Source: Escherichia coli
Lineage (GTDB): Bacteria; Pseudomonadota; Gammaproteobacteria; Enterobacterales; Enterobacteriaceae
Direction: 5' to 3' (one strand)
Length of the DNA: 64,000 bases
NCBI RefSeq assembly: GCF_013315695.1
Contig: NZ_CP054353.1
Under the pieces are notes generated by a model. The model had not been told where the DNA came from, ran no database searches, and saw only the letters and a list, made by a program, of their open reading frames with translations. Positions 25,822 through 28,056 of this stretch are shown piece after piece. The position numbers and the translations under genes are program-made. How positions within the stretch are numbered: the stretch's first letter is position 1; each line of letters starts with the position of its first letter.

Positions 25822-25945
25822 GTCAAATGCCATTAAATGGAGTCAGTGCTGCGATGCGCGAACGGGTATCGCAGCAGTTAAAAGAAATAGAACGTCGCTA
25901 TGGCGTGAAAGTGCTGTACGCCTGCGAATCAGGCAGCCGCGGCTG
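25818..25945 (+). pseudogene. Pol-beta-superfamily nucleotidyltransferase, 5' fragment (disrupted by IS4)
   Basis: ATG at 25818 overlaps SPFH stop (ATGA); encodes [42 protein letters not shown] then IS4. Confidence 0.7.
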
Positions 25946-27371
25946 TAATGCCAGTCAGTTAAGCAACTGACTGGCTCTTTTTCGGGGCTGTGGGGTATTT
26001 CCAGGGCCTCTCCTTTACCACTCTCGGGAAGGCCCTTTCCCTTCTTGTCGGTAATTTCACAAGTTGTCCCATACTTGCAAGATCGCGCATCAGCTCCGGT
26101 ATACGTCCCGGTGAAGCGCCCTGCAATGTCATCAGCATTCTCATCACCATTCCGCATGATTCTGAGAAACTCAGTTGATTCGGCCAGTAACCTTTCAGAT
26201 GTTCCGCCATTTTAATCATCTGATATCTCACCAGATTATAAGCCAGTAAGACACCCCACAGCTCTTGCTCCACAAGCTCCGGTTTTTTACTTCTCAGCGT
26301 CAGCCTGCTCAGTTGCATCGTCTGTTTTATCTCCCTGTATCCCAGTTCGATTTCCCAGCGATGACTGTACAGATCCGCCATTTCTCCTCCGGGGAAGCGC
26401 ATGGCGTCCGTCATCGACGTCAGCAGATGGCAGACTTTTCCTTTGCGCGTCACGGTCAGCAGGCGGGCTGTCACTTCATTTCCCAGTCCCGGCCACTTTT
26501 TTCGTGCCTGCGGGCTGGTTTTCAGCTTCACCAGATGATCGCCTTTACCCAGTTTTCTGATCTCTTCATATTGCGCTCCCTTTCTGAGAGGTATCATCCA
26601 GTGGCGGTGTTCTCCCGCCAGGCTCCAGGCATTTAACAGTCCCAGTGAGTAATAACCTTTATCCATTAACGTCAGAGTGTTATCGCCGGTTTGTTCTATA
26701 AGTTGCTCAGCAAGCTCATTTTCGCTGTTCTTCATCGTGCCGAAGGCTGCAGCCGTCAGCAGATGGCTGGTCAGTTCCATCTGGCAGACCATTTTGACCT
26801 GCGGGTAGAGCGCCGGGTTCCCGGCATGTGTCTGGCGGGGGAAGGCTGCATCGTTCTCTGGTGTATCCGGTGTGCGCCAGAACACACCATCGATGGCCAG
26901 CAGGGTCAGGCCGCACCAGTGCGGATGCGGCGTGGCGTTATGCCAGAGCTGCGCTGTTTTCGTGAACACGCGGCGGACAGCCTCACTTCCCAGGCGCTGG
27001 CGGGCCTGAATAACGGCACTGGGGGCAACGAAGGGGCGATTGCCCGGCAGCATGATGTCCAGGCGATTCACAATCTGGTGAAGAGGTTCTTTACGCTCAA
27101 GCGCCATGCCAACAATACACCAGACCATCATTTCGAGGGGAAGACGGCGCTTGCGTAGCGTTACAGTACCTGATTCGGCAAGGCAACGAGAGATGAGTTC
27201 GGGGTCGAGGTAATCCCCCAGAGAAGTCAGTGGGTTACGCAGAGAATCGTAACGGGATACCAGATCAAGAGCCTGTCCAATGTGCATAAAAAAATCCGGA
27301 AACAAGTGAGCGTTTCCGGATTCTTACACAGCCACTGGATCGGTCAACTGATCCTTAACTGATCGGCATTA
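25946..27371 (-). mobile_element. IS4 insertion sequence (1426 bp)
   Basis: 18-bp imperfect terminal IRs TAATGCCAGTCAGTTAAG / TAATGCCGATCAGTTAAG; flanked by 12-bp direct repeat CAGCCGCGGCTG (25934-25945, 27372-27383). Confidence 0.95.
25959..27287 (-). CDS. insG: IS4 transposase
   Basis: 442-aa product from [10 protein letters not shown]..., DDE transposase. Confidence 0.93.
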
Positions 27372-28056
27372 CAGCCGCGGCTGGGGATTTGCCTCGCCCG
27401 ATAGCGACTACGATGTACGGTTTTTGTATGTCCATCCGCTGGAATGGTATCTGCGTGTAGAGTCACCGCGCGATGTTATCGAGCTGCCCATCGACGACGA
27501 ATTAGATGTTTCCGGTTGGGAGTGGCGTAAGGCGCTGGGATTATTGAAAGGCGCGAATCCGACGCTGATAGAATGGCTGGATTCTCCGGTGGTCTATCAA
27601 CAAGATGAAGAAACGATAACGGCGCTTAAGGCAATGGTCCCAATGTGGTTTTCTTCGTTGCGTGCACGCTGGCATTACTATTCGATGGCGCAGAAAAACT
27701 TCCGCGGCTATTTGCAGGGCGATGAAGTTCGACTGAAAAAATACTTTTACGTGCTGCGCCCGCTGCTGGCCGTGCGCTGGGTCGAAGCGGGTAAAGGCGT
27801 GCCGCCAATGCGCTTTGCTGAGTTACTGGCAGGAAGCGAGCTTGATGCGCCGTTACGCGAAGAGATTGACGAACTGCTGGAGCGTAAACAGCGAGCGGGG
27901 GAGGCGGAATATGGTCCGCGCCGTCCTTTGTTACATGCGTTTATTCGCGCGGAGCTGGCGCGTGGGGAAATTCCACCGATTTTACCGGACAGTCGAGATG
28001 GAGATGTTCGGGAGCTAGATAATTTGCTGTATCAAACGGTAATGCGCCGGGCATAA
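27372..28056 (+). pseudogene. Pol-beta-superfamily nucleotidyltransferase, 3' fragment
   Basis: In-frame continuation [22 protein letters not shown]... completes the GS-x(n)-DxD NTase motif begun in the 5' fragment; reconstructed gene 266 aa. Confidence 0.7.

Follow-up and report, generated by a model that had tools for sequence, protein, structure and literature searches.

IS4 insertion within the active-site coding region of an RlaP-family nucleotidyltransferase gene of Escherichia coli

IS4 is the type element of the IS4 family and a member of its IS4 subgroup. The family is defined by a Y(2)R(3)E(6)K motif, and elements of the IS4 subgroup are 1400-1650 bp in length, are flanked by direct repeats of 10-13 bp, and carry the terminal signature -AATR... 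(PMC2266710; signature in Table 1). Some elements of this subgroup exhibit a "spectacular apparent insertion specificity" in the arms of their targets (PMC2266710), and IS186, an element of the same family, targets GGGG(N6/7)CCCC and has hot spots inside coding genes (PMC5009759). The closest described relatives of the gene interrupted here are the RlaP enzymes, in which three strictly conserved catalytic aspartates were reported and one of which, PfRlaP, has a described crystal structure (PMC12776372). Addition of one or two NMPs to the 3'-OH of damaged RNA was reported for the Pseudomonas RlaP enzymes only (PMC12776372).

In the 64-kb stretch of E. coli DNA analyzed here (the window), an IS4 element lies within a gene of the RlaP family. 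Taken as a whole, the locus is almost certainly best explained by a recent, simple transposition of IS4 that inactivated RlaP. An intact IS4 would have transposed by DDE cut-and-paste into the chromosome, in a gene that encodes a Pol-beta-type nucleotidyltransferase of the RlaP family (PF10127), and staggered cleavage of the target followed by gap repair would have duplicated 12 bp, CAGCCGCGGCTG. The insertion would thereby have split the gene inside codon W43, leaving the NTP-binding turn (G39-S40) on one side and the metal-binding residues (D51-x-D53 and D84) on the other. We found nothing that contradicts the transposition of IS4 itself; the argument on target preference, which we give last, is the weaker one.

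The IS4 element and its target-site duplication

The insertion consists of the following features.

25946..27371, minus strand (transposase gene antisense to the interrupted gene): complete IS4 of 1426 bp, from script check and profile search
25946..25963, plus strand: terminal inverted repeat of 18 bp, TAATGCCAGTCAGTTAAG, on the side away from the transposase start
27354..27371, minus strand: terminal inverted repeat of 18 bp, TAATGCCGATCAGTTAAG, on the side of the transposase start
25959..27287, minus strand: IS4 transposase InsG, 442 aa from ATG, with Nterm_IS4 and DDE_Tnp_1
25934..25945, unstranded: 12-bp target-site duplication CAGCCGCGGCTG, left copy, perfectly palindromic, from script check
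27372..27383, unstranded: right copy of the 12-bp target-site duplication CAGCCGCGGCTG, from script check

The first-pass annotation had described a 1426-bp IS4 with inverted repeats, and the ends, the profile matches, and 15 near-identical copies from other sites bear this description out. The two ends, TAATGCCAGTCAGTTAAG and the reverse complement of CTTAACTGATCGGCATTA (that is, TAATGCCGATCAGTTAAG), match at 16 of 18 positions and thus form imperfect repeats, and they carry the -AATR... signature of the subgroup. The inverted-repeat pattern was present at only two sites in the window, both of them the ends of IS4, against 0.01 expected by chance. The element contains one long ORF, on the minus strand, for which PGAP sets the start at the TTG at 27305 and gives a product of 448 aa. 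The transposase matched the Pfam profiles Nterm_IS4 (PF13006, E=3e-33) and DDE_Tnp_1 (PF01609, E=9e-32) as well as the NCBIfam IS4 equivalog transpos_IS4_1 (NF033592), the latter at 304.5 bits over a cutoff of 115 (E=9e-91), and a 15-residue stretch with the Y-x2-R-x3-E-x6-K motif could be read from the InsG translation.

We compared the element with 15 other IS4 copies at independent sites. These were the five copies L004-L008, taken from RefSeq E. coli genomes, and the ten copies L009-L018 of GCA_900448835.1. All were 1426 bp in length, were flanked by duplications of 11-14 bp, and differed from the window copy by 0-10 nt, and those that are annotated carry the label IS4/insG. The window copy differed by one mismatch from the annotated insG copy L004 and by 0-3 mismatches from the ten copies of GCA_900448835.1. 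Given its length, its single DDE ORF, the profile matches, the motif, and the near-identity to other copies, the element at 25946-27371 is, as judged from its sequence, a canonical and intact IS4. The identity between IS4 copies was also considered as a clock and dropped; with only 0-10 differences between copies, IS4 varies so little across E. coli that such identity says little about age.

A 12-bp direct repeat had likewise been noted on both sides of the element, and we found an exact CAGCCGCGGCTG at 25934-25945 and again at 27372-27383. Since the bases bordering the two copies differ, the duplication is exactly 12 bp, a length within the range of the IS4 subgroup. These two sites are the only occurrences of CAGCCGCGGCTG in the window, and the probability that 12 bp would match exactly by chance at fixed positions is ~6e-8.

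The interrupted nucleotidyltransferase gene

On the plus strand, the gene is present as two fragments.

25818..25945, plus strand: 5' RlaP fragment, codons 1-42 and 2 nt of W43, from the ORF list and annotation
27372..28056, plus strand: 3' RlaP fragment, W43 onwards, including D51, D53, and D84, from the ORF list and conservation

Excising the element and one repeat copy had been predicted to give a continuous frame; when run in silico, the excision yielded an uninterrupted ORF of 266 aa from 25818 (263 aa from ATG at 25827, the start set by PGAP). The restored protein matched the Pfam profile RlaP (PF10127) over profile positions 1-248 of 249 (E=2.9e-96, 322 bits, cutoff 23). There is no NCBIfam model for the nucleotidyltransferase, and a sequence search of the restored protein against the PDB returned nothing at E<=1; the active-site motif was therefore examined through conservation among homologs, an AF2 model, and Foldseek. 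No PADLOC model matched the nucleotidyltransferase or the slipin encoded upstream, so that this search gives no support for the pair as a known anti-phage defence system.

The restored RlaP contains a catalytic pattern of G39-S40, ten residues, and D51-Y-D53, with D84 as the third acidic residue. Members of the Pol-beta nucleotidyltransferase superfamily share a motif of G-[GS], about 10 residues, and D-x-[DE], plus a third acidic residue. In an alignment of 103 sequences, consisting of the restored protein and 102 diverse representatives of 37-57% identity, E37, G39, S40, R41, W43, S50, D51, and D84 were invariant, and D53 was conserved in at least 90%. The AF2 model of the restored protein (pLDDT 95.9) places the motif residues on strand-turn-helix-strand elements. 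The best PDB matches of the model in Foldseek were ANT(4')/kanamycin nucleotidyltransferase, Hailong HalB, and the GlnE adenylyltransferase domain, with a probability of 1.0 and a TM of about 0.43. The restored protein is thus predicted to consist of an NTase fold and a C-terminal helical domain, the match being one at the level of the fold rather than a residue-level superposition.

With codon 1 at 25818, the duplication spans the last base of the G39 codon to the second base of the W43 codon, and IS4 begins inside codon W43, between G39-S40-R41 and D51-x-D53. The first-pass annotation had proposed that the gene was split within its active-site motif; W43 indeed lies between the invariant G39, S40, and R41 on one side and D51 and D53 on the other. 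The 5' fragment keeps G39-S40-R41-G42 and runs into IS4, where it reaches a stop at 25970, giving a 50-aa product whose last 8 residues are IS-encoded. In the 3' fragment, the first possible in-frame start is TTG at 27424 (Leu57), so that any product of this fragment would lack D51 and D53. Because the NTP-binding turn is parted from the metal-binding aspartates, we infer from the motif, with considerable confidence, that the split gene would yield no catalytically competent protein and that the activity would be lost.

The disruption itself is ordinary and already known. RefSeq/PGAP annotates both halves of the gene as incomplete pseudogene pieces beside an IS4 transposase, and this is recorded in the public annotation of two E. 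coli genomes, which are the carriers described below. Both nucleotidyltransferase fragments, together with the slipin gene, should be called pseudogenes; beyond correct annotation, the point is of little importance.

Empty site, neighbourhood, and age of the insertion

An uninterrupted allele was expected in relatives and was found in public genomes. The 801 nt left after excision are identical (801/801) to an uninterrupted, annotated nucleotidyltransferase gene in each of three complete E. coli genomes, MS 21-1, OZ546925, and OZ546911. MS 21-1, the one of the three that was checked directly at the flanks, aligns collinearly with the window to the left and to the right of IS4, and because the two alignment pieces overlap by exactly the 12-mer, it represents the empty site with a single copy of CAGCCGCGGCTG. 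Its left flank shows 2 mismatches to the window in 6.1 kb, and its right flank, aligned over about 0.76 kb, shows 2 mismatches plus 3 gaps. The identity of the intact gene, the collinear flanks, and the single 12-mer agree with the simple transposition that the first-pass annotation had assumed, and the locus is a textbook case of a clean IS4 target duplication whose corresponding empty site can be found in public genomes.

Of 5426 complete E. coli genomes scanned with a junction probe, only two share the IS4 junction: MSB1_4I, from a rectal swab in Australia, and AF3, from a blood culture in the UK. Over 12.6 kb, these two show 1 and 3 mismatches to the window. There are 18 IS4-containing matches in the carriers, 16-17 IS4 matches in related strains such as IAI39 and CE10, and 13 and 16 in the 100%-identical empty-site relatives, where one of the matches is the gene flank itself. 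These numbers indicate a lineage-specific expansion of IS4 in genomes near the window at this locus, and IS4 has evidently been active in the lineage of the window, where its number has risen to about 12-18 copies. Across the collection, IS4 is present at about 12-20 copies in the genomes nearest at the locus, which include IAI39 and CE10, at a species median of 1, and at a maximum of 33 matches per genome. The insertion had been called probably recent, and we agree: given the two carriers among 5426 genomes, the few SNPs per 6-12 kb by which carriers and empty-site relatives differ, and the variable IS4 copy number, it is probably a recent, clone-specific addition, limited to a single clone within an E. 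coli lineage rich in IS4. As a clone-specific marker, the insertion could serve to type this lineage, whose nearest genomes at the locus include IAI39 and CE10.

The gene immediately upstream of RlaP is also defective.

24694..25821, plus strand: slipin/SPFH (Band_7) gene, upstream of the RlaP gene, a pseudogene through TGG>TAG at 25336-25338

The slipin stop overlaps the nucleotidyltransferase start (ATGA, 25818-25821), and the two genes are translationally coupled. The slipin gene is intact in TCM3e1 and 2003-3014, and its TAG replaces the TGG (Trp215) of intact alleles. The window shares the TAG with MS 21-1, so that the nonsense mutation, being present in an empty-site strain, predates IS4. 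The slipin-RlaP module was therefore already damaged before IS4 arrived, and the insertion struck a module that was no longer fully functional.

The yjbD-lysC interval, in which the pair is located (about 24.2-28.9 kb of the window), is a variable island in E. coli (L001, L019, and L020). The slipin-RlaP pair occurs in 1629 of 5426 genomes, and the cargo downstream of it differs among genomes, consisting of a prophage tail remnant, a zeta toxin, ISVsa5, or IS1. In the window, an IS1 of 768 bp lies at 28116-28883 on the plus strand, between the 3' end of the nucleotidyltransferase gene and lysC. Its position is occupied in MS 21-1 and TCM3e1 by a hypothetical gene, a DUF4376 gene, and P2-like tail genes, and in 2003-3014 by a zeta-toxin gene. 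The sequences bordering this IS1, AAGTGATTT on the left and AATAGCGTC on the right, form no 9-bp target duplication, and this points to a deletion or rearrangement associated with IS1. A second IS1, at 53696-54463 on the minus strand, is flanked by a clean 9-bp target duplication, GGTTTTGCC, and thus represents a simple insertion.

Three lesions cluster here, namely the slipin nonsense mutation, IS4 in RlaP, and an IS1 without duplication that replaces genes of relatives. Such a cluster could fit an IS4 insertion that was positively selected rather than a neutral hit in a decaying operon, with loss of RlaP or a full shutdown of the slipin-RlaP pair being advantageous in the clone. We regard this as improbable. 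MS 21-1, the only empty-site strain examined for it, already has the older slipin mutation, as would fit decay under relaxed selection, and the insertion is limited to its two carriers, both from one shallow clone. Homologous RlaP genes were found in 1629 of the 5426 complete genomes, and their absence from about 70% implies that the gene is dispensable; nothing in the analysis supports an adaptive loss. More speculatively, the stepwise decay of the pair by the nonsense mutation, IS4, and the adjacent IS1 deletion could have been adaptive in the IS4-rich extraintestinal lineage.

The empty-site comparison also bears on the idea that homologous recombination between IS4 copies, through inversion or deletion, had joined non-contiguous sequences, in which case the split gene would be a rearrangement junction. 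A lineage with about 18 IS4 copies offers many substrates for recombination, and the IS1 at 28116-28883 points to an IS-mediated rearrangement nearby. However, the identical 12-bp duplication on both sides of IS4, the collinearity of both flanks with MS 21-1 around exactly one 12-mer, and the 801/801 identity of the excised sequence to an intact gene effectively refute such an origin, and we give it almost no weight. An artefact of the source assembly, by repeat collapse or a misplaced IS copy, is just as hard to credit: misassembly at IS elements is a well-known problem and the source genome has many IS4 and IS1 copies, but the identical junction, flanks, and duplication occur in the independently sequenced complete genomes of MSB1_4I and AF3, and a misplaced copy would not yield a precise 12-bp target duplication. 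Transposition of IS4 into the RlaP gene thus remains the preferred explanation.

Target sequence and comparison with known systems

The duplicated sequence CAGCCGCGGCTG is contained in the RlaP codons GGC AGC CGC GGC TGG and is the only perfect palindrome of at least 12 bp in the RlaP gene and one of 22 in 62.6 kb. A consensus of AAA-N20-TTT for IS4 targets is said to have been given by Mayaux et al. in 1984. Our literature search found no published IS4 target consensus, and PMC5009759 and PMC1525189 give none, so the target pattern described here rests on our own sample of sites. For the estimate of preference we used the ten IS4 sites of GCA_900448835.1 (L009-L018), which were retrieved via the transposase protein and not selected by target. 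L004-L008 were left out, since they had been ranked by flank similarity and were biased toward CAGCC...GCTG.

Where the background has 4.0 +/- 1.8 symmetric complementary pairs out of 16, seven of the ten sampled sites reached 11 or more. The window site had 9 of 16, a value reached by 0.8% of random positions. In both sets of sites (L009-L018 and L004-L008), a GC-rich hairpin core turns into the 11-14-bp duplication, usually between an A-run and a T-run. IS4 sites resemble bidirectional intrinsic terminators between convergent genes. The arms of the window site are weak, with AA and TT(T) only, whereas long A- and T-runs are typical of intergenic IS4 sites. We also read two further RlaP alleles directly, one genome each. 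The 97.6%-identical allele of TCM3e1 carries the same palindrome and is uninterrupted, and a 92%-identical allele carries a 10-bp version of the palindrome, GAGCCGCGGCTG.

Because the uninterrupted TCM3e1 allele has the same palindrome, the RlaP palindrome is not a strong hot spot for IS4. It is plausible, however, that the site is an IS4 target, though not a strong one, and the exact position of the insertion was most likely set by the DNA, that is, by the palindromic codon string, and not by selection on the protein. We also raise a more general possibility, which we hold to be less likely than not, in which IS4 may pick its targets by symmetry (palindromic, hairpin-capable, and terminator-like sequence), so that the conserved G-S-R-G-W codons would have acted as a landing pad and the hit on the active site would not be a coincidence. 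A preference of IS4 for palindromic sequence, often flanked by an A-run and a T-run, would explain the position of the hit and may help to predict hot spots.

The element corresponds in every structural respect to the IS4 of Escherichia coli (ISfinder IS4; insG in K-12). It has the same 1426 bp with 18-bp imperfect inverted repeats and the same single 442-aa DDE transposase ORF with Y-x2-R-x3-E-x6-K, and its 12-bp duplication lies inside the 10-13 bp range of the subgroup (PMC2266710). The insertion site alone is specific to the clone. IS186, which belongs to the IS231 subgroup of the IS4 family, is likewise an E. coli element that chooses GC-rich palindromic targets (PMC5009759), but it is distinct from IS4 and has a consensus of its own. 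Unlike IS186, IS4 duplicates the very core on which the palindrome is centred, and this core often lies between an A-run and a T-run.

As for the interrupted gene, a 59%-identical RlaP homolog is encoded in the operon Band_7 - zf_Tbcl - RtcB - RlaP - HEAT_2 - RtcA (L021 404-6436), and the pairing of Band_7 with RlaP thus recurs in at least one RtcB-type RNA-repair cassette. At the E. coli locus, neither an RNA ligase nor a cyclase was found next to the RlaP gene, the slipin/Band_7 gene being its sole partner, and the locus looks like a reduced two-gene version of the RtcB cassette. Through the conserved Band_7-RlaP pairing, the orphan gene pair of E. coli is linked to RNA-repair cassettes of the RtcB type. 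The restored protein shares with PfRlaP and PaRlaP the full-length match to the Pfam family RlaP (PF10127) and the G-S...D-x-D...D residues, and it is predicted to have the same architecture of an NTase and a helical domain (PMC12776372). In contrast to the RNA-ligase-associated RlaP enzymes, the E. coli gene is paired with a slipin gene only, and in the window both genes of the pair are pseudogenes.
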